From an uncultured Acidobacteriota bacterium (GTDB lineage Bacteria; Acidobacteriota; Polarisedimenticolia; J045), in assembly GCA_963702425.1 (NCBI GenBank), contig CAVPCQ010000039.1:84338-148337 (forward strand): 64,000 nucleotides of DNA, written 5' to 3'. Position numbers and translations under genes: made by a program. The notes under the pieces are model-generated. The model had not been told where the DNA came from and did no database searches. It saw nothing but the letters and a program-made list of their open reading frames with translations. Below, piece by piece: positions 1-17,753 of this stretch. Numbering within the stretch: position 1 is the first letter of the stretch; each line of letters opens with the position of its first letter.

Positions 1-1765
1 CCTGGCAGAAGGTCTGTACGGCTTCGACGACGCCGGTCGGATGACGACGCTGACGGTCGCGAACACGGCCTCCGGGACGGGGCTCCAGAACCAGGTCACG
101 CAACTGGAGTACGACGCCCAGGGCCGGCGGACCAAGCGCTGCCTGCCGGACTTCCGGCAGGAGGTGAGCGCGTACCTGTCGAGCGGGCAGCTGAACACGC
201 TGACGGTCACGAGCGCCGGGACGAATTGCAGCGCGCCCGGGACCAAGCAGATCGTGCAGACGTCGACCTGGGACGACGCGGGGCGCCGCACGCAACTGAC
301 GCTGACGACGCCGACGGCGGACGCCGCGCACTACGGCGGGACGAAGAAGCAGACCTGGATCTGGGACGCGCTGGACCGGCTGGAGAAGAGCACGGACGAG
401 AACGCGGACGGCAGCGAGAACGCGGACGACGACGCGATCGTGCGCAAGAAGTACGACAGCCTGGGCCGGCCGGTGGAAGAGGGCTTCGGGGAGTCGTCGG
501 GCGCGGCGCGCTGGAAGGTGCTCTCGGCGTACGACCGGCGCGGGGCGCGGATCTCGCTGAAGTACCCCGCCGCGAACGGGACCGTCGGCACGACGCTGAC
601 GCTGGCCGCGGACACTCTCGGTCGAATGACCGGAATCACGGAGGGCGCGACGATCGTCGCGACGCTGACCTACGTCGGGGCCGGCCGGCTGGCGAAGATC
701 GACTCGCAGGACGACTCGGTTTGGCAGGGTCTGGACTGGGACGCGGCGGGCCGGCGGACGCGCGGCAAGGTGACGGAGGGCGCGACGTCCGCTTCGAGGA
801 GGAGATCGCCTTCGACGCCGACGAACGGGTGCTGTCGGTCAAGTGGCCGCACCTGGTGAGCAGCGGCCGGCCGCAGGTCCAGCAATACGGCTACGACGAG
901 CAGGCCCGGCTGCTGAAGCTGGAGCAGGGGTACGCCGAACCGAGCGGGAGAAGCTGGACCTTCCCGGTGGGCTACTCGGCCTTCCACGACTTCCATCTCG
1001 ACGAGCAGGGCAACTGGGCCGAACATAAGGACGGCGCGGGGACGACGCTGGTGAGCCCGACGATCGCCAAGGACAACGCGTACACGGCCTGGCCGGTCTC
1101 GGGCGGGTCGACGCTGAGCTTCGTGCTGGACGACACGGGGAGGTTCGTGTACGAGCGGCCGGTAGCGGGGGGCGGGAAGTACCTCTACCAGCACGACGGC
1201 CTCGGCCGCCTGATCTCGGCGCAGCGGATCAGCGTGCCGGGCAAGGCCGACCTGACGACGACCTACGGTTACACCGCGGACGGCCGGCTGGCCTGGCGCA
1301 AGGAGGGCGCGGCGGCGCGGGAGTGGCTGATCTACGACGGGTCGCAGGCGGTGGTGCAGACGACCGACACCGCGCTGAGCTGGACCCACGTCTGGGCCGG
1401 AAGCCGGCTGGTGCGCTCGACGAAGCACCCGGCCGGACGGTCTACCAGCCGCACCAGGACCGGCTGGGCTCGATCGTGGTGTTGACGCGCAGCGGCGGCC
1501 CGGAACGGGCGCTCTACGACGCCTACGGCCGGCTGGTGGCGACGTTCTAGACGATCACGAACGACACATTCGCGATCCCCTACGGCTACGCCGGCGCGCG
1601 CTGGGAGGCGACGCGGGACTGTACGAGATGGGGGCGCGCTGGTACGACCCGGAGCTGGGGAGATTCATCGAGCAGGACCCGATCGGCGAGGCCGGCGGCC
1701 TGAACCTCTACGCCTACGTCGGGTCGAGCCCGACGCTGTGGGTCGATCCGACGGGGCTGGCGCGA
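1..1765 (+). pseudogene. Rhs/YD-repeat core, copy 1 (5' end outside window; frameshifts/stop in this assembly)
   Basis: YD/RHS repeats (YDAQGRR, YDSLGRP, YDEQARLL), HQDRLGSIV, and terminal GRFIEQDPIGEAGGLNLYAYVGSSPTLWVDPTGL (DPTGL at 1745-1759). Split over ORFs 41-859 and 226-1485; TAG at 1548. Confidence 0.9.
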
Positions 1766-2635
1766 GACCTAACAGAGTGAAGGTTAGCGTTTAAGCAGAG
1801 CTGATTATGGCGATACGCTCAGCAGAAGGAGAAGAAGATAAAAAAGGAGACAGAGTTACGTACATGCGAATGTAAAAAAAAAAAGAAGAGGATGGTTAGA
1901 TGACGGTGCATAGAGAGGTAAAAAGGTAAGCGGATGAGCATAAGAGTAACTCGAGAAGAGGGTTAAAAGGTGGTTACAAAGATGAGGTAAAGCTAGAGGA
2001 TAGAAGGTGAAGGAAGGTGTTAGGTAGATGATTTAGAGTTAGAGAAGGATGAGAAAGGGAAGGAAAGTAGATATAGTAGGTGGTTGAGAGACTGATAGAG
2101 CTTTTGTAGAGCTAGAAGGTAAGGGAGACTATGGATTTATAAGGTGAATAGGGCACTAAGATAATAGTTAGGATGGGAGATTTGAAGTCATTAATAGTAC
2201 AAAAAGACTGTAGAGTTCACTGTAGGTGGTTTAGTAGGTAAGATGTAGATAGAGGCGCAGTAAGAGTAGCTTGCACAACTGGACAGAGACGTAGCGGTAA
2301 GGGTTTAGGGTTATAGGTTTGCAGAAAAGTGGAGTAGGTGTAGGGAGTTTTAGATAACGATAGAAGAGAGTGCATAGGGGGTTAGGACAAAATTGTTGTA
2401 TTGTTGTGTTAAGATATCGCGCAAGAGATTGGGTATGTTGATAAGGTTCTCGCGATAAAGTGTAATAAGAGCAAGATGTGGTAGAGGCTGACAAGGTAAA
2501 AGGGAAGAAAGAGTATGAGTAAGATGTAGTAGAGCAGTATGAGAGTAGCTAATAGAAGGTGGCGCTTAGAGAACTCGGAATATAGAAGTAGGGTTATGAG
2601 GGAGTTAAGATGTGGATAAAGGTTATTATAATTCT
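1766..2635 (+). other. Cytosine-depleted, A/G/T-rich tract occupying the Rhs CT1 slot
   Basis: Many 60-nt lines have only 1-5 C (e.g. 1981-2100), against C-rich flanks. No long + strand ORF. Confidence 0.85.
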
Positions 2636-3136
2636 AGTTGTTTGTACGCTCTTCACTGGAGCGTCCGAGGGCGGTCAGCGACAGCTACCGCTGTCGCGCC
2701 TGCCGGAGGTGAGCCTCAAGTTTGACCGGATCTCCAAGATGAGCCGGCCAGAAGCAGATGAGAAGATTCGACAAGAACTTGCTGCGCGACTCGTAGCGGC
2801 CGGCGTGACGATCTCGGAGGAATCACATCAACATCTCGATTTCCGTGTCACGGAGACCGCCGTGCCTGGATGCTCGGAAATCGTACATCTCCGGCTTGAG
2901 GTCTGGCTTTGGGAGTCTGTCCTGCTGCCGCGACTGAACAGCGTCAAGTACGTAGTCGATACGTGAGCGCAACAGAGGACGAGTTCGTCTGCGCATCCGA
3001 GGTCGAGACAGAGTCTAGGAGTCGCCTCCTCTTCTTCGCGGATCGACACGTGATGACCGAGCTGGCGGCAATGCGAGAGATCGAGACGGAGAAGGGGACA
3101 CCGACGAAGGCGCCTGTCCCCGCGGGTTCGAAGTAG
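2610..3136 (+). CDS. Putative immunity protein 1, secreted (frameshift near 2965)
   Basis: MWIKVIIILVVCTLFTGAS signal-like N-terminus; directly follows the CT1 slot; ORFs 2610-2966 and 2909-3136 appear to join. Confidence 0.55.
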
Positions 3137-3191
3137 CGACACGTGGTGTAGAAGCGTCACGATCCAGGAACAACGTGTCACGACGCCACAG

Positions 3192-5248
3192 CTGCCCAAG
3201 ACGGAGCAGGAGGTCTCGGACCCGGGCGGGCTGGGGACGAAGACCTGGGTGACGGAGTTCGGGTTCGATGCCTGGGCCGGGCGGTGGAAGTGCGGCTGAA
3301 GGGCAAGCAGGACGCCGACCCGCAGCGGATCGTCAAGCGCACGCTCGACGCGCGGGGCCTGACGACGGCGCAGTGGACGCCGCTCGGGTCCGCGGCTGCG
3401 GGCGACGCCTACAGCACGAAGACGGTCTACGACGGGCTCGGCCGCAAGACGGAGGAGTAGCGCTACGTCGGAGCGACTCAGAGCTGGAGCGGAAACTGGC
3501 AGAAGGTGCTGTACGACTACGACGACGCGGGCCGGATGACGACGCTGACGGTCCCGAACACGGCTCGGGGGCGGGGCTCGAGAACCAGGTCACGCAGCTG
3601 GAGTACGACGCCCAGGGCCGGCGGACGAAGCGCTGCCTGCCGGACTTCCGGCAGGAGGTCAGCGCGTACCTGTCGAGCGGGCAATTGAGCACGCTGACGG
3701 TCACGAGCGCCGGGACGAGCTGCAGCGCGCCCGGGGCCAAGCAGATCGTGCAGACTTCCAGTTGGGACGACGCGGGGCGGCGGACGCAACTGACGCTGAC
3801 GACGCCGACGGCGGACGCCGCGCACTACGGCGGGACGAAGAAGCAGACCTGGTCCTGGGACGCGCTGGACCGCTTGGAGAAGAGCACGGACGAGAACGCG
3901 GACGGCAGCGCGAACGCGGACGACGATGCGATCGTGCGGATGATGTACGACAGCCTGGGCCGTCCGCTGGAGGAGGGCTTCGGGAACTTGTCCGGCGCGG
4001 CGCGCTGGAAGGTGCTCTCGGCCTACGATCGGCGCGGAGTCCGTACGTCGCTGAAGTACCTCGCCGCGAACGGAACGTCGGCACCACGCTGGCGCTGGCC
4101 GCGGACATGTTCGGCCGGATGACCGGGATCACGGAGGGCGCGACCAGCGTCGCGACGCTGACCTACGTCGGGGCCGGCCGGCTGGCGCGGATCGTCTCGC
4201 AGGACGGTTCGGTCTGGCAGGGTCTGGACTGGGACGAGGCCGGGCGGCGGACGCGCGGCCAGGTGACGGAGGGTGCGGCGGTCCGCTTCGAAGAGGAGAT
4301 CGCCTTCGACGCCGACGACCGGGTGCTGTCGGTCAAGTGGCCGCACCTGGTGAGCAGCAGCCGGCCGCAGGTCCAGCAATTCGGCTACGACGAGCAGGCC
4401 CGGCTGCTGAAGGTGGAGCAGGGCTACGGGACCTGGGATGGGACGACGTGGACCTTCACGGAGTACTCGGCCTTCCACGACTTCCATCTCGACGAGCAGG
4501 GCAACTGGGCCGAACATAAGGATGGCGCGGGGACGACGCTGGTGAGCTCGACGATCGCCAAGGACAACGCGTACACGGCCTGGCCGGTTTCGGGGGGTCG
4601 ACGCTGAGCTTCGTGCTGGACGACACGGGGAGGTTCGTGTACGAGCGCCCGGTAACCGGGGGTGGGGAGTACCTCTACTAGCACGACGGCCTCGGGTCGC
4701 CTGGTTCGGCGCAGCGGATCAGCGTACCGGGCAAGACCGACCTGACGACGACCTACGGCTACACCGCGGACAGCCGGCTGGCTTGGCGCAAGGAGGGCGC
4801 GGCAGCGCGTGAGTGGCTGATCTACGACGGGTCGCAGGCGGTGGTGCAGACGACCGACACCGCGCTGACCTGGACCCACGTCTGGGCCGGAAGCCGGCTG
4901 GTGCGGTCGACGAAGAATAGGGCTCGGGACGGTCTACATCCGCACCAGGACCGGCTGGGCTCGATCGTGGTGGTGACGCGCAGCGGCGGCCCAGACCGCG
5001 CACTCTACGACCCCTACGGCCGGCTGGTGGCGGCCTTCTCGACAATCACGAACGACACTTCGCGGTTCCCTACGGCTACGCCGGCGCGCGCTGGGAGGCG
5101 ACGGCGGGGCTGTACCAGATGGGGGCGCGCTGGTACGACGCAGCTGGGACGGTTCCTCGAGCAGGACCCGATCGGCGAGGCCGGCGGCCTGAACCTCTAC
5201 GCCTACGTCGGGTCGAGCTCGACGCTGTGGGTCGATCCGACGGGGCTG
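3192..5248 (+). pseudogene. Rhs core, copy 2 (orphan cassette, frameshifted)
   Basis: Near-identical to copy 1 from about 3500; DPTGL at 5234-5248; no clear start codon; several indels and TAG stops. Confidence 0.9.
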
Positions 5249-6150
5249 GCGAGGGAGAGTGCTACAACGTGGGAACCGCTGGCGGCGGCTCTGGAAACCG
5301 CATGACGCAGATGAACTGGTCCTTCAGCGGCGGGTCCACCAGCGATTGTCTGACCGGCGGCTCGGGCGGATGGATCGACGCTGCCTTTGGGCGCCAAGAT
5401 GACTACTAGGGTCCATCGAAGGACGAGCCTGGGTACCGCCTGACGACGCCGGCGCAGCGGCGGGCGGCCAAGAGGGCGGCGGAGAGCGCGACCGCGACCG
5501 CAGCCGCTGGCCAGTTCCCCGACAGCTTCGAAGCGATCATCGGATCATTCGAGAGGTTGGGAGCAGCGTCACCTGCGGGCATTCCTCTCCAATGCCACGA
5601 CATGTATGCGAACTCGAGTACGGCCGATCGCCTGGCGCGGAAGTTCGCTGGAATCCGGCCACCAGTTCCTGTGCATATCGGGGACGACGTGAGTCATACG
5701 ACCTTCGAGGAGACCCCGAGGGCCACGCGGCGCGTCCCAGTTCAGCACCGGTCGGGATGATCTGGATACGATCTCAGTCTACCGATGAGCAGGAGTGCCT
5801 CGACCTGGTGGAGGAGATGTGGCACGCGGTGGATGAGGCGAGTGTTGGCCATGTTGACCTGCCGGGATGAGCGAAACCGAATACAAGCAAGCGAAGCGCG
5901 ACAGAGAGGCCGATGCAGCAATCGCGTGATCACCGTAAAGCAAGAGTTGATGCGCGCGAACTTCCCGAGGGCTCGCGGACTTCGTGTGCCTCTTGAGGCC
6001 TCGTACCTTTCGATGATTCGCGCTGGCCTGTCCGCACAATCGCTTCGTCAGCATATTGGGGACCTCAAAGGAAAACTAGTCTTGCAGAATGGACTCACAT
6101 ACGAACAGAACTGGGAAACGGCGTGGCGGTCCGCTCAGCACGGGAGGTAG
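5249..6150 (+). pseudogene. Rhs CT2: metallopeptidase-like toxin domain homologous to CT3 (frameshifted)
   Basis: Linker STSDCLTGGSGGWID..QDDY*GPS..PGY..TPAQRRA matches CT3. LVEEMWHAV sits at the HExxH position, and it ends TYEQNWETAWRSAQHGR (stop 6150). Confidence 0.6.
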
Positions 6151-6152
6151 TC

Positions 6153-6860
6153 ATGCGCGGTTGGGTCCTGCAAACTGCTTCGGCTACTGTCGTCATGGCT
6201 CTGATGTGCAGCCTCATACATTCTGACGCTGACCGAACGGTCGAACTCGACGCGATGCGGCGCTTGCCTAGCATCACGCTTGCCGCCAGCCAGCCCGACC
6301 GCTCAGTGGCTCGGGCGGTGTCGGACATTCCGGACTCCGGCGACACTCCTGTCGCGTTGGGGTGCCGGCTTTTCTGGCTTTGTCCTGTGTGGAGGGTCGC
6401 CGATCGAGGGTGGGCTCTGGGCCGAGACGCCGCCCAACACACTCACTCCAATCTCACGGGGAACTGAACTGGTCGAGGTCTTCCGCTCCCACGTGGAGTG
6501 CTTAGCGATGCCGTCCAGGCTCTCGAGTATGGAAAGCTCTACGCGCTCGTCGAGAGCACGGCGCGAAATGTGCAGGTGATCGACCGAGAGCCCTCGCGGG
6601 GACCGGGTCCCAGGGGCCACTCGTCGCCGAACTGATTGGAGCACTAAGTCCCCACGGTGCGTCCAGTATTCGAGAACCGATCGTTGCGGGAATCGGCCCG
6701 TGGACGGTGACCCTTTACGTTCGAGGAGATGGATCGAATCGACAGAGACGTGTGCGCATAGCAGCGACAGGAGCGGTTGATTCGATCGAGAGGACTGAAG
6801 CTCGAAGTCGCGGACGATCAAGGGAGTCGCGATGCTGTGAAGCAGAGATCGGAAGTTCGC
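6153..6860 (+). CDS. Putative immunity protein 2, secreted (frameshifted, end approximate)
   Basis: ATG 2 nt after the CT2 stop with GGAGG upstream; hydrophobic N-terminus MRGWVLQTASATVVMALMCSLIHSDA. Confidence 0.45.
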
Positions 6861-6904
6861 TGGTCGGCGAGGGCACGGTGGGGTGTGTTGGCGGAATCAC
6901 GCAG

Positions 6905-8787
6905 TTCGTCGGGGAGATCGCCTTCGACGCCGACGACGGGTGCTGTCGGTCAAATGGCCGCACCTGGTAAGCAGCGGTCGCCCCCAGGTCCAGCAATTCG
7001 ACTACGACGAGCAGGCCGGCTGCTGAAGGTGGAGCAGGGCTACGGGACCTGGAACGGGACCGAGACGAAGTGGACCTTCACGCAGTACTCGTCCTTCCAC
7101 GACTTCCGTCTGGACGAGCAGGGGAACTGGGCCGAACATCAGGACGGCGCGGGAGCGGAAGCATCCTTGTGAACCGACGATCGTCCAGAGCAACGCCTAC
7201 ATAGAGTGGCCGGTGTCGGGCGGGTCGCCGCTGAAGTTCGTGCTGGACGACACGGGGAGGTTCCTGTACGAGCGGCCGGTGACCGGGGCCAGGAAGTACC
7301 TCTACCGGCACGACGGTCTCGGGCGCCTGGTCTCGGCCGAGAAGCAGAACGCGCAGGGCCAGATCGTGAGCACCACGACCTACGGCTACACCGCGGACGG
7401 CCGGCTGGCCTGGCGGAAGGACGGTGCAGCGGATCGGGAGTGGCTGATCTACGACGGGTCGCAGGCCGTCGTGCAGATCCAGCAACCGTCCCAGGGGGTC
7501 GCCGCCCTGACCTGGACCCACGTCTGGGCCGGAAACCGGCTGGTGCGGACGACCCGTCATCAAGGGCAGAGCGCGAGCTACGTGCGGCACCAGGATCGGC
7601 TGGGATCGATCGTGTTGCTGCGGACGCTCGGGGACGGGAGCCTCGAGAAGAAGCTGTACGATCCCTACGGCCGTGTGGTCGCCGTTCCCACCGACAGCAC
7701 GACGAGCCCGTTGCCGATCCCCTACGGCTACGCCGGCGCGCGCTGGGAGGCGACCGCGGGTCTGTACCAGATGGGGGCGCGCTGGTACGACCCGGAACTG
7801 GGGCGGTTCATCGAGCAGGACCCGATCGGCGAGGCCGGCGGCCTGAACCTCTACGCCTACGTCGGGTCGAGCCCGACACTGTGGGTCGATCCGACGGGGT
7901 TGGCGCGGCAGGGCGTTGGGGGATCCGTGATCGGTGGCGGCCCGGTGAACCGGACGAGTCAGCGTCAACTCCTCGTGGACGGGACGTCGACGAGCGACGT
8001 GCTGACGGGCTCGTCGGGCGGCTGGCTCGATTGGGGATCAAGGCACCAGACGGACTACTGGGGGCCCTCATACGACCAGCCCGGGTACGATCCGAAGACG
8101 CCCGCGCAGCGACGTGCTGAGAGAGGGGCCAGCGGGCAGGAGGCGAAGGGCGCGGCAGGCCAGGGCGGGGATACGGACCTTTACTCGATCATCGCGACCT
8201 TCCAACGCATCGGAGCGGAACTCGGCCCTTGGGCCAACAAGATCGACCTGCTCGCGATCAGCTCTCCCACGCTGCGGCAAGCCCTCGCCCTGGCGCAGCA
8301 GCACGACGCGCACTTCTCCGTCCGCGACAGAGCCACACCGAACTACTATCACGAGGGAAGTGAAAGCGACAACATCCCCGCGCGCACGATTCTCCTCCCG
8401 GGCACAACAGATGGCTACACGGCGGAAGATATCGCTCGAGCGATAGTCCACGAGACAACGCATCTCGAGCAACACATGACCGGGAGGTTCCCTGACATTC
8501 GACAATTGAGCGAGGACAAGTACGTTGCGGGCGTCCTGAAGGCCGAGGCCGAGGCGTTCACGCGCGGCATGAAAGCCACCGAGGAGTTCTCCCGAGCGGG
8601 ATTCGTGGTGGATAGGTCGTCTCTCGAAATGCACGTGGCAGCGTCAAGCGGGCTGCCGCAGGCGGGCGCGGCTTGGGAGCGGGCCGCGACGGCGGCAGCA
8701 CTCGCTTGGGTCAGCAACCCAGACGTATCGCCCTATCCGGCAAGAGCGCATGCAAACTGGAGGAGCTACCATGCCCAGGCGAAGTAG
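6905..8787 (+). CDS. Rhs core copy 3 (short orphan) plus CT3 HExxH zinc-metallopeptidase-like toxin domain
   Basis: ORF 7213-8787 runs intact through DPTGL (7888-7902) into CT3, with AIVHETTHLEQH (8449-8463) and a downstream EAEA; 6905-7200 is degenerate core sequence. Confidence 0.85.
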
Positions 8788-9541
8788 GAACGTGCATACC
8801 CCAACGGCGTGCTTGATCGTTGTGACGCTCGTGTTCCTTACGGGCTTGTCTGCGCATCCTCAAGAGCCTCTGTGCGAGCCTGGATTCACGATGAGCCTGA
8901 CGGGCAGCAAGGATCTGAAGTGGACCGTGCTCGATGACGAGGCTCGCCGAGAGCTGCTTGACCTGCTTTACAAGGAAGCTCCCCTTCTCGCCAAAGAGTT
9001 CCGATCGTGCGGGGAGCTGGCGCCGATTGTAGAGGTTCCGGCGCCATTCCTCCGCTCAGGCCGTCTCTACGCGGGGTGCCTTTGTCCTGATATGGAATGG
9101 TACTACTTTGGAGCTATCGACGATAGCGCCTACGCGCTCTACGGCAGTTCTACTCGACGCCAGAACTTCTACGCATTGACTGGATTGAGACTCGACCAAG
9201 CCGAAAACCGCCTATTGCTCGCGGTCTTCGATGTGACCGCGTCGCAAGCGCCGCCGAGGAGCTTCGTTCCAATCCAAGATCCGGGGAATCCGGGCGGAGA
9301 GCAGGCTCGGATCATGCGACGATGGAAGGGCTTCTTCAGCGAAGACCGAATGGAGCTGGTGAAGCGCAATCTGGACCGAGTGACGCCGCCGTGGCTGTGT
9401 TCCGAGGATTCGTGGTCGGGAGGCTTCTTCGCGACGGTTCCTTCGGGACTCCGGAGAATCGACTTCTCGATCTCCAAAGGCGGCGGCGTCAGTTTCGCGG
9501 TGACGGAAGTTGCATCGACGGACGAACTGCACGGTAGATAG
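8771..9541 (+). CDS. Putative immunity protein 3, secreted
   Basis: AGGAG-N5-ATG overlapping the CT3 end; signal-like ACLIVVTLVFLTGLSA; 256 aa intact ORF of lower GC. Confidence 0.7.
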   Translation: MPRRSRNVHTPTACLIVVTLVFLTGLSAHPQEPLCEPGFTMSLTGSKDLKWTVLDDEARRELLDLLYKEAPLLAKEFRSCGELAPIVEVPAPFLRSGRLYAGCLCPDMEWYYFGAIDDSAYALYGSSTRRQNFYALTGLRLDQAENRLLLAVFDVTASQAPPRSFVPIQDPGNPGGEQARIMRRWKGFFSEDRMELVKRNLDRVTPPWLCSEDSWSGGFFATVPSGLRRIDFSISKGGGVSFAVTEVASTDELHGR

Positions 9542-9639
9542 GAAGCGTGACGGCTGGTCCGTCTGTTTGATTGGCCGACGATCTGTGCCGACGGGAACGC
9601 GGAGACCCGTCGCGGCTAGCGAATGTGGATCGCGCACGC

Positions 9640-11103
9640 GCGCCGGGACGAGCTGCAGCGCGCCCGGGACCAAGCAGATCGTGCAGACCTCGACCTGGGA
9701 CGACGCGGGGCGACGGACGCAACTGACCCTGACGACGCCGGCCGCGGACGCCGCGCACTACGGCGGGACGAAGAAGCAGACCTGGACCTGGGACGCGCTG
9801 GACCGCTTGGAGAAGAGCACGGACGAGAACGCGGACGGCAGCGCGAACGCGGACGACGACGCGATCGTGCGGATGAAGTACGACAGCCTGGGCCGTCCGC
9901 TGGAGGAGGGCTTCGGGGAGTCGTCTGGCGCGGCGCGCTGGAAGGTGCTCTCGGCCTACGACCGGCGCGGAGTGCGTATCTCGCTGAAGTACCCCGCCGC
10001 GAACGGAACCGTCGGCACCACGCTGGCGCTGGCCGCGGACACTCTCGGCCGGATGACCGGGATCACGGAGGGCGCGACGAGCGTCGCGACGCTGACCTAC
10101 GTCGGGGCCGGCCGGCTGGCGAAGATCCAGTCGCAGGACGACTCGGTTTGGCAGGGTCTGGACTGGGACGCGGCCGGCCGCCGGACGCGCGGCCAGGTGA
10201 CGGAAGGCGCGACGGTCCGCTTCGAAGAGGAGATCGCCTTCGACGCCGACGACCGGGTGCTGTCGGTCAAGTGGCCGCACCTGGTGAGCAGCAGCCGGCC
10301 GCAGGTCCAGCAATTCGGCTACGACGAGCAGGCCCGGCTGCTGAAGCTCGAGCAGGGGTACGCCGATCCGAGCGGGAGCAGCTGGACCTTCCCGGTGGGC
10401 TACTCGGCCTTCCACGACTTCCATCTCGACGAGCAGGGCAACTGGGCCGAACATAAGGATGGCGCGGGGACGACGCTGGTGAGCCCGACGATCGCCAAGG
10501 ACAACGCGTACACGGCCTGGCCGGTCTCGGGCGGGTCGACGCTGAGCTTCGTGCTGGACGACACGGGGAGGTTCGTGTACGAGCGGCCGGTGGCCGGGGG
10601 CGGGAAGTACGTCTACAAGCACGACGGCCTCGGCCGCCTGGTGTCGGCGCAGCGGCTCAGCGTGCCGGGCAACGCCGACCTGACGACGACCTACGGCTAC
10701 ACCGCGGACAGCCGGCTGGCTTGGCGCAAGGAGGGGACGGCGGCGCGCGAGTGGCTGATCTACGACGGGTCGCAGGCGGTGGTGCAGACGACCGACACCG
10801 CGCTGACCTGGACCCACGTCTGGGCCGGAAGCCGGCTGGTGCGGTCGACGAAGCACCCGGCCGGAACGGTCTACCATCCGCATCAGGACCGGCTGGGATC
10901 GATCGTGGTGGTGACGCGTAGCGGCGGACCGGACCGCGCGATCTATGATCCCTACGGCCGGCTGGTGGCGGCCTTCTCGACGATCACGAACGACACTTTC
11001 CCCGTGCCCTTCGGCTACACCGGGGCGCGCTGGGAGGCGACGGCGGGCCTCTACCAGATGGGGGCGCGCTGGTACGACCCGGAGCTGGGGCGGTTCATTG
11101 AGC
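9640..11103 (+). pseudogene. Rhs core, copy 4 (in frame, truncated at GRFIE before the cleavage motif; no CT)
   Basis: Near-identical to copy 1 from AGTSCSAPG to ARWYDPELGRFIE, then abrupt loss of similarity. Confidence 0.9.
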
Positions 11104-11394
11104 CGGTGAGGCGGCCACATACGATGACGGGCTCAAAGCCCAATACTCGAATCGGCCGGCCCCGAGGTGAACGGCCCCCTCGCACCCAGCAGGTTGGTGA
11201 CGCGTCTCACCTCGTCCCTGGCCCGGTGCAAGGCCGGAGACCACGAGCGCCCGGCCGAGCCAAGTCCCTCGCCCGAACCACTCGCCGCCCCCTGATCTCG
11301 CCTGGTGCTGCAGCGTCCGCTGGTCCTTGGATCTGCTTCCCTTCGGAACAGCCCGCGCTGCCACGCGGACCGCGCTTCGCACAGAGTCGTACCC

Positions 11395-11510
11395 TGTACG
11401 ACGAGCAGGCCCGGCTGCTGACGCTTGAGCAGGGGTACGCCGACCCGAGCGGGAGCGGCTGGACCTTTCCGGCGGGCTACGCCGGCTTCCACGACTTCCA
11501 TCTCGAAGAG
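11395..11510 (+). repeat. Short Rhs core fragment (copy 5)
   Basis: Translates YDEQARLLTLEQGYADPSGSGWTFPAGYAGFHDFHLE, matching 10320-10435. Confidence 0.85.
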
Positions 11511-11864
11511 CTCCGGATCTCGGAGCCCGGCGTCGGCGTGAAGGACCTCTCGCCGCACGGCTGGAAGGTCCGCTTTGAGGCCGACGTCAAGGCCCGCCGC
11601 TACGAGATCCTCAGCAAGCTCACCGGCGCCGCCTGAGTCCGCCCGGCTGGCGGCTCCATGAAGGACGGGGTGGGGATCACAGAGCGGTTACGGTGAGTGG
11701 GCGAAAGGTCTGCCCGCTGGGGGTAGCCCCGAGCATGCGAACCGGACCACGGCGACGTAGGTCAGCCGCACGGGGCGGTCTGGGGGGACGGTCCACGCAG
11801 GCCGCTTCGTCGAGGGCGGGGTGGCGATCAGAAAACGGTGACGGACCCATGCCGGCGGGAGCGG

Positions 11865-12903
11865 TCAGCCGCGCTGCAGCGTGGCGCGCGTCGCGGCCTC
11901 GAGGGGGCCGGCCAGCGCGTCGCTCACGATCGGGACCGGGTCGGCCACGCCGGGTGCCAGGACGATCCGATGCGCGAAGAGCGGCACGGCCAGCGCCGCC
12001 AGGTCGTCGGTCGAGACGAAGGTCCGGCCGCGCCGCATGGCGCGCGCCTGGAGCGCCGGGACCGCCTGGACCAGCGAACGCGTGGACAGCCCCTGGGCGA
12101 CCCGCGGGTCGTCGCGCGTGGCCCGTGCCAGGTCGACCAGGCAGGCCCGCAGCTCGGCCGCGAAGTGGACCTCCCGCTCGATCGCGTCGCGCGCCGCGAG
12201 CAGCTCGTCGCGGGTGATCTTCGGCCGCGAGGAAGGCTGCGGGTGGAGCCGCTGGCGGTAACTGGCGACGACCTCGAGCTCGGCGCTCGCGCGCGATCGG
12301 CACCATCCGGATCTTGAACAGGAAGCGGTCGAGCTGCGGGGCCGGGAGCGGGAAGGTCCCGGCGAGGCCGAGCGGATTCTGGGTCGCGACGACCAGGAAG
12401 AGCGGGTCGAGCGGATAGGTCACGTTGTCGACCGTGACCTGGCGCTCGGCCATCGCCTCGAGCAGCGCCGACTGCACCTTCGGCGAGGTCCGGTTGATCT
12501 CGTCGGCCAGCACGACGTGCGCGAAGACCGGGCCAGGCACGAACTCGAAGCGGGCGTGCTCCGGGTCGAAGACCGAGACGCCGGTGATGTCGGAGGGGAG
12601 CAGGTCGGGCGTGAACTGGATCCGGCGGAAGGCCGAGAGGGGCGAGCCGTCGCCGTCGAGCGACTCGCCGAGCGCGCGCGCCAGCATCGTCTTGCCCGAG
12701 CCCGGGAAGTCCTCGAGCAGGACGTGCCCCCCCGCGAGCCAGGCGACGACGACGAGGTCGATCACGTCGTCGCGGCCGACGATCGCCTCGCCGAGCCGCG
12801 CAGCGACGCGTTGGGCCACCTCCGCGGCCTCGGAAAGTCCGGCGCCGTCCCGGCCGGTCTCCTCATCGCGCGCGGCGTCGATCGGATTCCTGTCAGGCTC
12901 CAC
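11865..12903 (-). CDS. moxR: MoxR-family AAA+ ATPase (frameshift near 12295)
   Basis: GHVLLEDFPGSGKT, RIQFTPDLLPSDITG, LADEINR, ATQNP, FPLPAPQLDRFL; C-terminal half in another frame ending at TGA 11865. Confidence 0.85.
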
Positions 12904-12923
12904 GTTCCGCCTCCGGTTTCACG

Positions 12924-15141
12924 TCAGCGCGTCCGCAACCAGCGCCAAGGGTCGAGCCGGCCCCACCATACCCTCCCGCGGGCTCCTCGTCGCGGGTCCG
13001 CCGCGCGCTGCCGCGCGACCAGGCGCGCCAGCTGCGCCGCGCGCACAGGGTCGGCGTCACGGGCGCCGAATCGCGCGGCGAGGTGGGCCGCGGTGAGCGG
13101 TTCGATCGCCGCCGCCGTTCCCGCCGCGCGCGCGGCGAAGGCCTCCCGCGTTTCGCCGGGGGTGCGGACCAGCCCGGCCTCGGCCAGCCGATCGAGCGCC
13201 GAGCGCAGCGCCAGGCGCGCAGTGCGGTCCCGCCGCGCAGCGACCGGGGCGATGCGCCGCCAGAGCTTCGCGGCGTGCCCCGCGCCGGCCCAGGCCAGCA
13301 GGGCCGACCCGAGCACGAGCAGCGTCTCGGCGCGCCCCGGCAACCGGTAGCGGGGCGGGCCGTCGCGCCCTGGCCCGCTCGCGCGCGGCCGCGCCAGCTC
13401 GCCCATCATCCGCTGGAGGTCGAGGCTCGGGGCCGCGAGCGGCGGATCGAGCGACGGCGGGGAGGGGTCGATCGGGACCCACCCGACGTCGTCGAGATAG
13501 ACCTCGGCCCAGGCGTGCGCATCGCCGGCGCGCAACATCAGCGCGGAGCCCCCAGCACGGTTCGCCTCCTCGTAGGCGTAGCCGGCCGCGACGCGCGACG
13601 GCAACCCCATCGCCCGCAGCAGGTAGGCCGCGGCGTGGGCGAGGTGCACGCAGTAGCCGATCCGGTCCCCGAAGAGGAACGACGCGGTCGGGTCGTCGGC
13701 CGCGGCGTGGTGCGAGCGCAGCGAGTACTGGGTGTGCCCCTCGAGCCAGATCGCAACCGCGAGCGCGCGGGCCCACGGATCCCCGGCGTACTCCGGCCGC
13801 AGCGTCGCGTCGATCTCCGCCGCCAGCGCCGCGTAGCGCGGATCGGCGGGCGCCTCGCGATAGGCGGCGTCGAGCGCGGCCGACCAGGCGGGGCTGCCTG
13901 CGGCGCGCCCCAGCAGTCGCGGCAGCCTTGCGGTCAGGACCATCGAGCGCGTGTCGTAGGTCCGGCGGAACAGCGCGGGGTCGGCGTTGGCGACCGACTC
14001 GAGCGCGAACCCCTCGGCCAGGACCGGCGGCAGGACGTGGTCGCGAACGAGCGAGACGGTGGCCTGGAGCGGGTCGCGGAAGGCCGCAGCCCGGGGGAAG
14101 CGCGTGCACCTCGGCCGCGCCCGCTGCAGGGAAGCGGGGAAACAGGTCGGCATCGGCCTCCTCTCCGGCCGTGCCGCCGCCACGCGCCTGGACCAGGCGG
14201 CGGCCGTTGTGGACCGAGAATGCGACCTGCCGGAAGTAGAGCACCCCGCCCGTCGGCGCGACGTCGTCGTGCAGCACGACGACCGCGACCGGCGCCTCGG
14301 CGCCGTTCGACGAGTAGTCGTCGCGGAAGGGCGCCATCTCATCGAGACGCTCGCCGTGTCCCGGGCCGGGGACGGTGAGGCCGAGCGGGTTCTGCTCGCC
14401 GCGCGCACGGGGCGGGCCCTCCGCGGTCGAACCGCCGCCGCGCTCCCCCTGCGGCTCACCGGACAGGCGGAGCGGATCCTCGGACGGCAACCGCAGCAGG
14501 CCGAGCGCGGGAGCGAAGCGAACCAGCGTCGCGGCAGCGACCAGCAACAGCAACGCCGCGAGCCAGGCGCGCCGGGCGCGGCCGGGGCGATAGAGCGCGA
14601 GCGAGCCGGCCACGCCCGCCACCGCGCCGAGCGCGGAGAAGACCAGCGCCGGGTGCCAGCCGGCGAGAAACGCGCGGTCCGAGACGGCGTAGGGCAGGTG
14701 GATCGCGCCGCCGCGGTGCGGCGCCAACAGCAGCGCCACCGCGCCGACGAGCGCGGCGAGCGGGAGCAGGCGCATCGCCGGGACGCGGGCCGCGGCGTGC
14801 GCGAGGAGCAGGGCCGCAGCGAGCACCGGGAGTCCGACGGTCAGCGCCTCGCGCGTCCGGGCCAGCAGGTCGGGCCACGGGACGAGCGCTGGCGGGAGGC
14901 GGTCGATCAGCGAGGCGACGAGCGGTCCCAGACCGGCGACGAGCAGCGCCGCCGCCGGGACGACCCACGCGCGCAGGCCACTGCTTGCGGTGCGGCTGCC
15001 GGCGAGGCCGCCGATCGTTGCGGCGACGATCGCCACGGCGAGTCCGGACGCGCTCGCCGCCGGTGCGAAGCACAACCCCGCCGCCGCAGCCAGGACCAGT
15101 GCGACCGGAAGTCCGTTCCCGAGGGTCCGGAGCGCGCTCAT
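12924..15141 (-). CDS. Membrane transglutaminase-like protein (frameshift near 14100)
   Basis: N-terminal TM helices; catalytic GYCVHLA, AHAWAEVYLDDVGWVPIDP; C-terminal RTPGET..FA motif. Confidence 0.8.
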
Positions 15142-16463
15142 CGCCCGCCTGCCGCGGTGACCGATTCGGGGCCGAGCAGGTCGGCGCCGGAGAGGACGGT
15201 CAGCCGGCCACCGACGCGGTCGGCGAGCACGAGGCGCACGCCGGTGGCGGCGAGCGGAGCGAGACCGCGCACCAGCGCGTCGAAAGCAGGCAGCGGGCGG
15301 TCCTCCCGCAGCAGGGCGCGCGCCAGGAGGCCGGCCGGCGGCAAGGCCAGGCCGGCATCCGCGGCGGCGACGATCGCGTATCGCGACGGATCGGCCGCGA
15401 CCTGGGGGAGGACCAGCGGGAGCCAGCCGCCGCTGCGCGCCGGGACGACGAGCAGGACCGGGCTGCCCGGCTCCGCGGCGCCGAGCGCGAGCGCGGCGGC
15501 AAGGTCGGCCCCCCCCCGCGCGCGGTGGCGCACAGAAGCGGCCAGGAGGTCGAGCGCGCGGCGCAGGTCGCGCACCGGGGCGGGAGCGCCGTCGCACGCG
15601 AACGGCAGGTCATCGCCGAACAGGCCGCTCTCGAGGATGACCCGCGCGGCCGCAGCCGCGGCGTCGTCGCCCTCGCCCGCGACGAGATAGAGCAGCGGCG
15701 TCCCCTCGGGGGAACGGGCCGGCTCGTGGGCTCGCACCATGAGCTGACGCGATCGGGCGTAGACCTTCCACAGGATCAGCCGCGCGGGATCGGACCGGGT
15801 GTAGGTCCGGAAGTCGACGAGGTCGCCCCGCGGCGGTCCCGTCGGCCAGGACAGGAGATCCCCGGTGGCGAGGCTCGTGGCCAGCTCCGCCGCCGACAGG
15901 CGCCCCGGGTCGGGCAGCGCGCGCACCGCGCGCGGTTGCGGCACACGGGCGGTGAAGCGCCAGAGCCCCAGCACGTCCTCGCCATGCAGCTCGCGCACGA
16001 TCTCGCCGGCCAGCGCGCGGTCGGGGAAGGTCACCTGCTCGACGCGCAGCGCGCTCCGCGCGCTGGGTGCGGCGACGGCCGCCGGGGCGATCCAGGCCAG
16101 CCGCGGGGTGGCGGCGAGGGGCACCACGCGCACCGGCAGCACGAGGCCCGACGCGACCGGCCGGCCCTCGACCGCCTCGAGCGGCGGCGCTCCCGAGGCA
16201 CTCGCGCGCTGGAGGTCGCGCCGGGCCAGCGCCAGTGACAGTGCCGCCGCCGCGCCGGTGCCGACCACGAGAGCGAGACCCCAGAGGGCCGCGATCGTGA
16301 CGACCAGATCGATCCGGCCGCGCCCGAACCAGTAGGCCGCGGCCGATGCGGCCAGCAGCAGGAAGCCGGCCGGCCGGATCGGAACCGCGCGGACCCACGC
16401 GAAAAGACGGCGGGCCAGAGGCACGCGGACGGGGGGCGGCGCCGCCTGGGGCGCGGTCGACAT
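15138..16463 (-). CDS. DUF58 domain protein
   Basis: GDLVDFRTYTRSDPARLILWKVYARSRQLMVR signature; N-terminal TM; stop overlaps the transglutaminase start. Confidence 0.8.
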   Translation of the reverse strand: MSTAPQAAPPPVRVPLARRLFAWVRAVPIRPAGFLLLAASAAAYWFGRGRIDLVVTIAALWGLALVVGTGAAAALSLALARRDLQRASASGAPPLEAVEGRPVASGLVLPVRVVPLAATPRLAWIAPAAVAAPSARSALRVEQVTFPDRALAGEIVRELHGEDVLGLWRFTARVPQPRAVRALPDPGRLSAAELATSLATGDLLSWPTGPPRGDLVDFRTYTRSDPARLILWKVYARSRQLMVRAHEPARSPEGTPLLYLVAGEGDDAAAAAARVILESGLFGDDLPFACDGAPAPVRDLRRALDLLAASVRHRARGGADLAAALALGAAEPGSPVLLVVPARSGGWLPLVLPQVAADPSRYAIVAAADAGLALPPAGLLARALLREDRPLPAFDALVRGLAPLAATGVRLVLADRVGGRLTVLSGADLLGPESVTAAGGR

Positions 16464-16604
16464 CCGCGCGAGTCTAGATGCGCGGCGCGCCGGGTGCGAG
16501 GCCGCGGGGGTCGGGGGCGCCCCCGGGCGGCTGGTCGCCGCGGCCGATTGCACTCACAATGCCCCGGTTGCCGGCCCGCTGGCCGGCCTGAGGTGAGTGC
16601 CGAC

Positions 16605-17753
16605 ATGAGCCATGCTGAAGCGGGACGGAGTGTGACGCGCGGGGCCCTCCTCGCGCTGGTCGTCGGGTGTCTGGCGTTCGCGGCCGGGTGCGGCAAAGGC
16701 AAGCCCGAGAAGCCGGAGTCGCCGCTCGACAAGATCCCGACCAAGGACGCGGTCGTGCTGGTCGGCGACAAGCAGATCTCCGGCGCGTGGCTCCGCAACT
16801 GGTGCGCGACGCAGGAACTGCAGTTCCTGCGCGGCGGGATGCCGGTCCAGGTCGACGAGTACTCGCTGATCACGGCGGGCCGCCAGATCCTGACCAAGAT
16901 CGTGCTGATCGCCGGCGAGGCCGAACGCCAGGGGATCACGGTCAGCGACCAGGAGATCCAGGACCAGCTGAGCAAGGAAATGAAGTTGTTCCCCTCGACC
17001 GAGGCCTGGCGCGACCGGATGACCGCGTCGGGGATGACGGTCGAGGAGCGGAAGGAACAGATCCGGCTCGAGCTGCTCTTCAACAAGTACCGCGAGCAGG
17101 TCGTGACGCCGGAGGTGCTGAAGACCCGCGCCAACATGGAGATGGCTCGCGAGTACTACGGCCGCTACCCGCAGCAGTTCCAGCGCCCGCGCGCGGTCCA
17201 CCTGGCGCACATCATGCGCTCGGTCGCCAAGGACGCGCCTCCCGACCAGCGCGACAAGGAACGCGCCAACATCGAGAAAGCGCGCGGCCGCGTCTCGAGC
17301 GGCGAGAAGTTCGAGGATGTGGCGCGCGAGGTATCGACCGACGTCTCGGCGATCAAGGGTGGCGACATCAAGTGGGTCACCGAACAGGCTCCGCTCGCGC
17401 CGGAGATCAAGGCGAAGGTGCTGGTCCTCAAGCCCGGCGAGATGACCGAGATCATCGAGAGCCCGGTCGGGTACCACCTGTTCCTGGCCCTCGAGGTCAA
17501 GGAGGCCGGGGTCGTGCCGTTCGAGGAGGCGCAGGAGGGGATCCAGAAGCAGCTGCTCGAGAAGTCGCTCCAGGTCTCGATGGAGCGCGCGGCGTCCGAC
17601 CTGCAGCAGCAGACCAAGGTCCAGTTCCTCGATCTCAAGCCGTTCATCGGCACACCGCCCGAGAAGGCGGCCGGCGCCCCGGCCGCGGGGGCGACCGCGC
17701 CACCCGCCGAAGGTGCCCCGCCGGTCCCCCAGCAGGCTCCCGCCAAGAACTAG
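16605..17753 (+). CDS. SurA/PrsA-like parvulin peptidyl-prolyl isomerase lipoprotein
   Basis: Lipobox-like AAGC; SurA-like GITVSDQEI; rotamase motifs HIM, FEDVAREVSTD, GGDI, SPVGYHL. Confidence 0.85.
   Translation: MSHAEAGRSVTRGALLALVVGCLAFAAGCGKGKPEKPESPLDKIPTKDAVVLVGDKQISGAWLRNWCATQELQFLRGGMPVQVDEYSLITAGRQILTKIVLIAGEAERQGITVSDQEIQDQLSKEMKLFPSTEAWRDRMTASGMTVEERKEQIRLELLFNKYREQVVTPEVLKTRANMEMAREYYGRYPQQFQRPRAVHLAHIMRSVAKDAPPDQRDKERANIEKARGRVSSGEKFEDVAREVSTDVSAIKGGDIKWVTEQAPLAPEIKAKVLVLKPGEMTEIIESPVGYHLFLALEVKEAGVVPFEEAQEGIQKQLLEKSLQVSMERAASDLQQQTKVQFLDLKPFIGTPPEKAAGAPAAGATAPPAEGAPPVPQQAPAKN

Follow-up and report, generated by a model that had tools for sequence, protein, structure and literature searches.

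A probable Rhs polymorphic-toxin island with orphan cassettes, partly in poor sequence, in an uncultured Acidobacteriota bacterium

The stretch of DNA considered here (hereafter the window) comprises 64,000 nucleotides (nt) from an uncultured Acidobacteriota bacterium (genome G000, contig C39, positions 84338-148337), and its beginning carries most of a probable Rhs polymorphic-toxin island, composed of a main rhs gene that starts upstream of the window and of orphan cassettes in which a partial Rhs core is followed by a C-terminal (CT) toxin module and a candidate immunity gene. The genome assembly amounts to 5.1 Mb in 42 contigs, has a GC content of ~71% and is 91% complete with 5.85% contamination. 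Negative coordinates are counted back from the window start. The locus was compared with four genomes of the same genus (G001, G002, G003 and G004), with one genome of the same family (G007) and with Logan contigs from sequencing runs, two of which (X1 and X2) are from freshwater sediment and include contigs over the tract described below, while those of X3 and X4 lie outside it. No listed sequencing run contains more than 14% of the sampled words of the region, nor is any RNA run listed for it. No conclusion depends on G034, a genome flagged as unpublished.

Organization of the Rhs array

Four partial Rhs cores follow one another on the + strand. Core 1 (1-1759) is the 3' end of the main rhs gene; orphan core 2 occupies 3190-5248, orphan core 3, the most divergent (76-81% identical to the others), 6899-7902, and orphan core 4, which lies within an open reading frame (ORF) at 9510-11636, 9640-11103. 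In a four-way alignment their starts are staggered (before 1; 3190; ~6899-6905; ~9640-9660). A repeat search detected 10 direct-repeat families within 1-12500, one of which consists of four copies of 300 nt at 1102, 4592, 7219 and 10530 that are 72-92% identical, and a single 16-nt array as the only tandem repeat. Comparison by blastn gave for core 4 (9510-11636) 93.7% identity to core 1 over 1472 nt, 92.3% to core 2 over 1475 nt and 78.7% to core 3 over 928 nt; cores 1 and 2 are 91.3% identical over 1768 nt, with homology extending ~290-298 nt to the left of the window start. The four copies are thus 78-94% identical overall, a similarity beyond what chance could yield. The Rhs-associated core family TIGR03696 (NCBIfam) matches the ORF at 7213-8787 with 87.2 bits (cut-off 32.5) and has 13 matches in the whole genome, four of them in this array.

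Cores 1 and 3 end in DPIGEAGGLNLYAYVGSSPTLWVDPTGL, a DPIG-x19-DPTGL motif found at 1676-1759 and 7819-7902, and core 2 in a third copy of it (5165-5248) with one S replacing P. Core 4 stops at ~11103 (RWYDPELGRFIEP), short of the motif, and covers positions 1-48 of the 76 of TIGR03696. Behind each motif are a CT slot of 850-904 nt (slot 1, 1760-2609; slot 2, 5249-6152; slot 3, 7903-8787) and a small coupled ORF, namely imm1 (2610-2966, or to 3136 past a frame break near 2961), imm2 (6153-6467; 104 amino acids (aa) as assembled, although it may extend in another frame) and imm3 (8771-9541; 256 aa, overlapping the end of CT3 by 17 nt). Judged by eye, all three small ORFs open with basic residues and then a hydrophobic stretch, as a signal peptide would, and they are regarded here as candidate immunity genes. 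The repeat search, blastn and the four-way alignment bear out what a sequence-only reading of the window had proposed, that is, four partial cores with staggered starts, three of them closed by DPIG-x19-DPTGL and followed by a CT slot of ~0.85-0.9 kb and a closely coupled small ORF.

The cassettes differ in legibility. A CT with its predicted cognate immunity gene behind the motif, the arrangement that defines Rhs polymorphic toxins, is present in cassette 3; cassette 2 is broken in frame, with CT slot 2 split over several frames as assembled, and cassette 1 cannot be read, its slot being occupied by a C-depleted tract (1770-2650) that probably represents a corrupted GC-rich toxin gene. Also found is the feature that characterizes orphan arrays: downstream of a full-length gene, in the same locus, come partial cores that are homologous to its 3' end.

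The main rhs gene and its secretion

The sequence-only reading had placed the main gene upstream of the window, where it was indeed found. Its RHS repeats, a DUF6531 domain and a signal-peptide-like N-terminus begin at about -7112 to -7043, that is, ~7.1 kb upstream, and the upstream ORF matches RHS repeats (PF05593, E value 2.8e-45; TIGR01643, 1.3e-43) and DUF6531 (5.4e-12). The frame from -7205 to -3024 is open except for one TGA at -4487 (L001, ~13851-13853), which splits the 1394-codon N-terminal part of the gene. In G007 the homologue is intact (3400 aa) and shows the same order of signal-peptide-like start, RHS repeats, DUF6531 and further YD shell, from which a length of ~3,200 aa would follow for the main protein of G000. 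The N-termini of the proteins of G000, G003 and G007 all present basic residues followed by a hydrophobic stretch, by eye only.

The secretion determinant looks like a Sec-type signal peptide. Searches of the G000 genome, which at 91% completeness can report such genes as not found and not as absent, gave no matches to PAAR (PF05488) or to VipB (PF05943), the sheath protein of type VI secretion systems (T6SS). The signal peptides that each of the three immunity candidates seems to carry, together with the lack of a sheath or PAAR match, suggest export by the Sec route and toxins that would act in the periplasm or envelope. In terms of sequence content, with no PAAR or VipB match in the genome and a signal-peptide-like N-terminus, the protein does not resemble a T6SS-delivered Rhs effector.

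Toxin and immunity modules

CT3, the sole intact CT, consists of a linker and a domain with an HExxH motif (HETTH). It scores 13.4 bits against Pfam DUF6782, below the cut-off of 27, and phmmer, run exhaustively against 1.84 billion representatives, returned four matches at E <= 0.001. All three full-length relatives match DUF6782, with 51.4 (P0006), 29.3 (P0007) and 22.5 bits, the first two above the cut-off; the HExxH helix aligns between them and CT3, and one relative also carries WXG100 and a weak Tox-MPTase4 match. A word search with CT3 retrieved one near match and two longer ones (one being the window's own protein), the others spanning the linker only. The AlphaFold model of CT3 is of middling quality (predicted local distance difference test score, pLDDT, 66.8; predicted template modelling score, pTM, 0.72), and Foldseek returned no PDB match at E <= 0.001. 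The best VIA-align structures, 22ob_A (Z 5.7, root-mean-square deviation 5.0, 142 aligned) and 8s5f_A (Z 5.3, 4.7, 140 aligned), both fall below the trust level of the tool; both are HExxH proteins. Since one of these weak fold matches is an oxygenase, peptidase activity is a lead only, and the domain appears distantly like the DUF6782 metallopeptidase-type toxin domains.

A complex of CT3 with mature imm3 was predicted with a score of 0.84 (best of three controls, 0.00), a level attained among solved complexes by 51 of 78 and among mismatched pairs by 2 of 108; the runs had at least 92% of contacts in common and a partner pLDDT of at least 87. Imm3 is therefore predicted to bind CT3. On the CT3 side, residues 80-87 take part in the predicted contact. 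They shortly precede the HExxH helix (at 98-102 in the 205-aa piece), and because of this proximity imm3 may cover the active-site cleft. A DNA homologue of imm3 that is 93.8% identical occurs in G004.

Less can be said about the other two cassettes. The first ~95 residues of CT2 are 49% identical to the N-terminal linker of CT3; neither CT slot 2 nor imm2 matches a Pfam family. A homologue of imm1 that is 85-86% identical is encoded by a same-genus genome, and this homologue, together with the only close one among genome contigs, which lies in a record of an uncultured Acidobacteriota metagenome-assembled genome, agrees with the phylum that the sequence-only reading had guessed. Relatives of imm1 are otherwise scarce: they occur in 2 of the 119 genomes of the class, G000 included, a search of genome contigs yielded two loci (one of them, L020, at 29% identity within a 343-aa ORF), and metagenome contigs yielded none.

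The island in same-genus genomes

In G004, G003 and G001 the DNA matching -12060 to -7510 and that matching 11852 to 17000 abut within 0-4 nt. This junction was seen in all three same-genus genomes that match both flanks (G002 matched the left flank only), and the array is accordingly an island of ~19.4 kb (-7510 to 11851) that all three lack at this position. Its right boundary falls at 11851/11852.

Two of these genomes carry parts of the array elsewhere. On a different contig of G003 lie a main gene orthologous to that of G000 (77-80% identical at the DNA level) and two orphan cores, the contig breaking off within the second of these; the flank of this array matches neither the G004 immunity island nor any single place in G000. 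G004 gave no match to the core protein and has, on another contig, homologues of imm1 (91% DNA identity) and imm3; the 254 nt that precede the main rhs gene of G000 are joined there directly to the equivalent of position 2534, on the imm1 side, and the first ~68 nt of core 2 are retained behind imm1. This G004 segment (C2, ~115180-118400; L017/L018) thus presents the rhs upstream region and the imm1 homologue, then ~1.5 kb of DNA and the imm3 homologue, and reads as a locus in which the toxin gene was lost and the immunity genes were retained.

Further Rhs loci of G000 were observed at C40:55086-63176, C33:82833-85226, C30:65950-68438 and C17:54225-54455. The C40 array comprises a 2275-aa frame and three orphans and the C33 array a 2300-aa frame and one orphan; their orphans are open (547-661 aa) and both arrays look intact. 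Outside the island, the Rhs genes of G000 are open over 1560-2300 aa. There is also a lone 520-nt core fragment (L002; C18:105370-105888), 92% identical to cores 1 and 4, with neither CT nor motif, which lies immediately behind an Fpg/MutM gene.

These comparisons bear on whether the assembler could have produced the array by stringing together the variants that different strains have of a single rhs 3' end. Such an origin would be compatible with a metagenome-derived genome with the contamination given above, with copies 78-94% alike and with the source reads not being at hand, and the imm2/core 3 and imm3/core 4 junctions have no independent support. It is nevertheless made extremely unlikely by the staggered starts and unique junctions, by the imm1/core 2 junction retained in G004, by an X1 contig that bridges CT2 to imm2 (5502-6453), by the same main-plus-orphan layout in G003, a separate assembly, and by the comparable arrays with open frames on C40 and C33. 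One X2 contig that touches 1764 also holds the core end, CT1 and imm1 together, although with 29 nt on the core side this joint is weak.

The right end of the island (11104-11851) holds unrelated sequence that is fused to core 4 in frame. In this tail a 115-nt core segment is duplicated at 11397-11511 (91% identical to 10320-10434), and the last ~120 nt (11512-11633) are 72% identical to C12:89752-89871; both look like rearrangement scars. Outside the array, on the - strand, lies a gene for a MoxR-type AAA ATPase (11866-12903), in which one extra G at 12285-12286 relative to G004 shifts the frame, so that the ORF runs to 11677 and does not stop at ~11866. In a conserved flanking gene this extra base is probably an assembly error.

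The C-depleted tract in CT slot 1

The + strand of the tract at 1770-2650 is composed of A 318, C 61, G 287 and T 205 among the 871 nt counted (7% C, 33% G, 36% A and 24% T; GC 40%, GC skew 0.67), and no ORF reaching 60 aa is present on that strand. No other long C-depleted region occurs in the genome. From 2534 on it can be aligned with G004, and within 2534-2650 15 of the 20 differences fall at a C of G004 (seven replaced by A, seven by T and one by G), C being kept at 9 of 24 places and G at 34 of 37; past 2650 the differences are mixed (53 in 608 nt).

Contigs of two runs extend this comparison. Record 1 of X1 (1082 nt, depth 36) and record 8 of X2 (1451 nt, depth 27) align to 2078/2108-2338 and 2448-3142 with two gaps in 231 nt and three in 695 nt, so that the register is kept. 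Of the 37 differing places listed in 2142-2498, 36 carry C in the contigs, the corresponding letter of the window being A (16), T (18) or G (2). Over the whole aligned stretch, changes of A to C and T to C account for 96 of 199 in X1 and 105 of 249 in X2, and for 16 of 85 in X3 and 30 of 171 in X4, outside the tract. Which letter replaces C depends on the 3' neighbour, with A 15 times, T once and G twice ahead of G, and T 14 times and A twice ahead of A, that is, CG became AG and CA became TA (Fisher p = 6.8e-6, over the 51 places at which the run contigs or G004 have C). The C-depleted form is held by none of the runs, and the bins at 1874-2047 have no cover in all four at 88% likeness. By these alignments the tract is a C-substituted rendering of ordinary sequence.

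Two other origins for the tract were considered and rejected. A search by fast Fourier transform of the genome and of all loci for an un-mutated template copy, of the kind a diversity-generating retroelement would use, returned only the tract itself and the G004 stretch over its last part, and in the lack of such a copy the idea was dropped. A score under which C may become A or T did not relate the tract to CT2 or CT3 (17 and 17, null 20.4 +/- 2.7), and against the fetched loci it picked up only C-rich composition artefacts (L005, L008).

The context-set, register-keeping change of about three quarters of the C on a single strand, with little other divergence, points to miscalls at the level of the sequencing signal, and the slot 1 tract is very probably a basecalling or assembly artefact. 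The depletion might also be real, either as strand-specific cytosine hypermutation that is heritable and silences the toxin while sparing the immunity gene, or as dense modification of coding-strand cytosines misread by the sequencer. The strand specificity (9 of 24 C kept versus 34 of 37 G), the register kept with the parent sequence with few gaps, the near coincidence of the tract with the CT slot and the presence of a second, smaller C-depleted tract next to a HepT-like toxin gene in another island would all suit such chemistry. It is judged very unlikely: the dependence on the next base is what signal-level miscalls, and not lesion bypass, would produce; some three in four C are altered and the sequence otherwise hardly departs from the natural copy; no run contains the depleted form; and the genome has no un-mutated template. 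Replication past ~200 lesions in 870 nt, moreover, could hardly yield the tract.

Other tracts of the assembly convert differently. Odd composition was also detected at C11:45274-45429, C31:18253-18390 and C38:63053-63148 (C-depleted), at C21:160005-160113 (poly-C) and at C36:77502-77605 (poly-A). Compared with G004, the C11 tract shows mainly C to T (32) and A to T (10), and the C38 tract G insertions (14), C to G (7) and C to A (6); both are intergenic as judged by high-GC3 ORFs, which again tells against a chemistry directed at toxin genes. Beside the C31 tract lies a fragment (L027:471-665; C31:18070-18264) that resembles HepT, a HEPN RNase toxin (36.3 bits, cut-off 23.5), in a frame that seems broken by eye; the C31 stretch with this gene is absent from three same-genus genomes.

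The frame-broken patch

From ~-3300 to 7200 the assembly shows a frame break about every 220 nt. Over -3311 to 1767 (5.1 kb) the alignment with G003 contains 19 one-nt and four two-nt gaps in the sequence of G000 and three of each in G003, as against three (G000) and four (G003) gaps over -6875 to -3514. The bases missing at the one-nt gaps of G000 (C 8, G 6, T 3, A 2) show no clear strand asymmetry. Relative to core 4, core 1 has a TAG at 1548-1550 and three one-nt gaps that break the frame (786, 1436 and 1612), core 2 at least four gaps and a TAG, and core 3 four breaks, all before 7180, being intact from 7213; core 4, CT3 and imm3 have none. The flanks compared with G004 contain 33 indel events of lengths not divisible by three in 30.6 kb, many of them paired. 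In a codon-phase scan the 5 kb around the tract had 11 phase changes, reached by 1.2% of 3000 random windows. Lineage-specific substitutions at codon positions 1/2/3 were counted for core 4 (8/1/18), core 1 (13/8/26) and core 2 (20/21/31), and the substitution spectrum of the cores has no C bias. Where run contigs cover the breaks they differ from the assembly: those of X1 and X2 have a single additional C after 2961, by which the frame of imm1 is restored, and in core 2 those of all four runs have an additional C after each of 4936 and 5057.

Taken alone, the frame-break facts fit true decay and a low-quality consensus alike. If decay were real, the locus would be a relic in which the 3' half of the main gene, cores 1-3, CT2 and imm1 are pseudogenes and cassette 3 and core 4 are intact, the CT1 tract still being an artefact. 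The breaks are ~15-20 times denser than in the flanks and spare core 4, CT3 and imm3, the codon-position spread of core 2 contrasts with that of core 4, the stops at 1548 and 4679 were made by substitution, and in G004 the rhs gene was lost altogether. This course is considered rather unlikely, given that the breaks which could be checked (behind 2961, 4936 and 5057) are missing from independent contigs, although these may derive from other copies or strains, that the broken patch is continuous and encloses the corrupted tract, and that errors occur elsewhere in the assembly (the MoxR frame shift and the skewed tracts). Most frame breaks in the patch are accordingly read as errors, with less confidence than in the case of the tract.

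Proposed interpretation

We consider it probable that the locus is a 19.4-kb Rhs polymorphic-toxin island, with a main gene and orphan cassettes, in which -3300 to 7200 is poor sequence whose anomalies are mostly errors and not biology. The window would hold the 3' two-thirds of the island (about -7510 to 11851). One giant gene would encode a signal-peptide-bearing Rhs/YD-repeat protein whose shell closes with the DPxG...DPxGL autoproteolysis motif, followed by the variable CT1 and then by the immunity gene. Behind it, three orphan cassettes would present progressively shorter 3' pieces of the core, each combined with a CT of its own and an immunity gene that bears a signal peptide; the last of the four cores is truncated. 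If they behave like the Rhs loci studied so far, the orphans would be unexpressed spares; homologous recombination between cores could link them to the main gene, and the immunity genes may protect against kin that use those toxins. The C-depleted CT1 and most frame breaks would be basecalling or consensus errors.

Several observations weigh against the error-laden island just described. The signal peptides were judged by eye and not by a predictor, and the artefact was deduced without source reads, the best run holding 14% of the words. The tract runs from ~10 nt past DPTGL to ~40 nt into imm1, so that its edges coincide with the CT slot; the HepT-like toxin gene immediately precedes the C31 tract; and only one of seven loci of odd composition lies in a frame-broken patch. 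Furthermore, gap density in the array (23 in G000 versus 6 in G003 over 5.1 kb) is far above that of the flanks, core 4, also a repeat, is clean, the substitutions of core 2 are spread near-evenly over codon positions as in a pseudogene, and the G003 ortholog has some frame breaks too. The break density and the clean core 4 leave room for real decay of part of the array. The tract edges and the C31 placement, in turn, would also be expected if strain-specific islands were thinly covered and their repeats were rescued by paralogous reads in polishing.

Since the sequence is probably erroneous, gene decay cannot be judged from this assembly. What the sequence-only reading had called a reservoir of Rhs orphan cassettes therefore stands in part: a main gene with an orphan array of the polymorphic-toxin kind was found, and a usable reservoir was not demonstrated. 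As the breakage of most parts is probably error, its usability is neither affirmed nor denied. No junction of an orphan CT with the main gene occurs in the run contigs compared, and CT swapping was not observed.

Relation to known systems

Main rhs genes followed by orphan rhs-CT/rhsI cassettes are reported for Salmonella Typhimurium LT2, E. coli and Dickeya (PMC3150448, PMC3967940). Like those enterobacterial loci, the array discussed here appears to have a full-length gene followed by 3' core fragments, each with a CT and an immunity gene, the core ends in a DPxGL-type motif and core homology could support recombination. It differs from them in its predicted main protein of ~3,200 aa, in which DUF6531 is flanked by RHS repeats on either side, in the signal-peptide-like N-terminus with no PAAR, VgrG or T6SS context found, in its Acidobacteriota host, in the signal peptides on all immunity candidates and in that no recombination was observed.

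Autocleavage of T6SS Rhs effectors by an aspartyl protease at DPxG motifs is reported in PMC8636562 and PMC8765631. An Rhs-associated core with two DPxG motifs ahead of the toxin is common to those effectors and to this array, where cleavage is putative, whereas no T6SS parts were found in the G000 genome (PAAR and VipB were searched). Orphan immunity arrays left after effector loss or displacement are likewise reported in Vibrio cholerae (PMC5361080) and for Serratia Rhs (PMC10539506). G004 resembles them in keeping imm1 and imm3 homologues without a matching rhs core, and differs in that the rhs upstream region is fused straight to imm1, which would represent a simple deletion of the toxin gene and not displacement. 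With the DUF6782 and Tox-MPTase toxin domains CT3 shares an HExxH motif in a helix; unlike DUF6782 members it is itself below the family cut-off, and its peptidase activity is putative.

Biological implications

The composition anomaly and the apparent pseudogenization at this locus, which are most likely assembly damage, carry a warning on method: claims of decay, hypermutation or odd non-coding sequence that are made from this assembly need read-level support, and the stretch from -3300 to 7200 is unfit for such arguments. With regard to the organisms themselves, one genus shows the gain and relocation of an array as well as the loss of a toxin with retention of immunity. The locus adds to the known kinds of Rhs systems a giant array that is apparently T6SS-independent and Sec-exported, with immunity proteins that would be directed to the periplasm, in a poorly studied phylum of soil and sediment.

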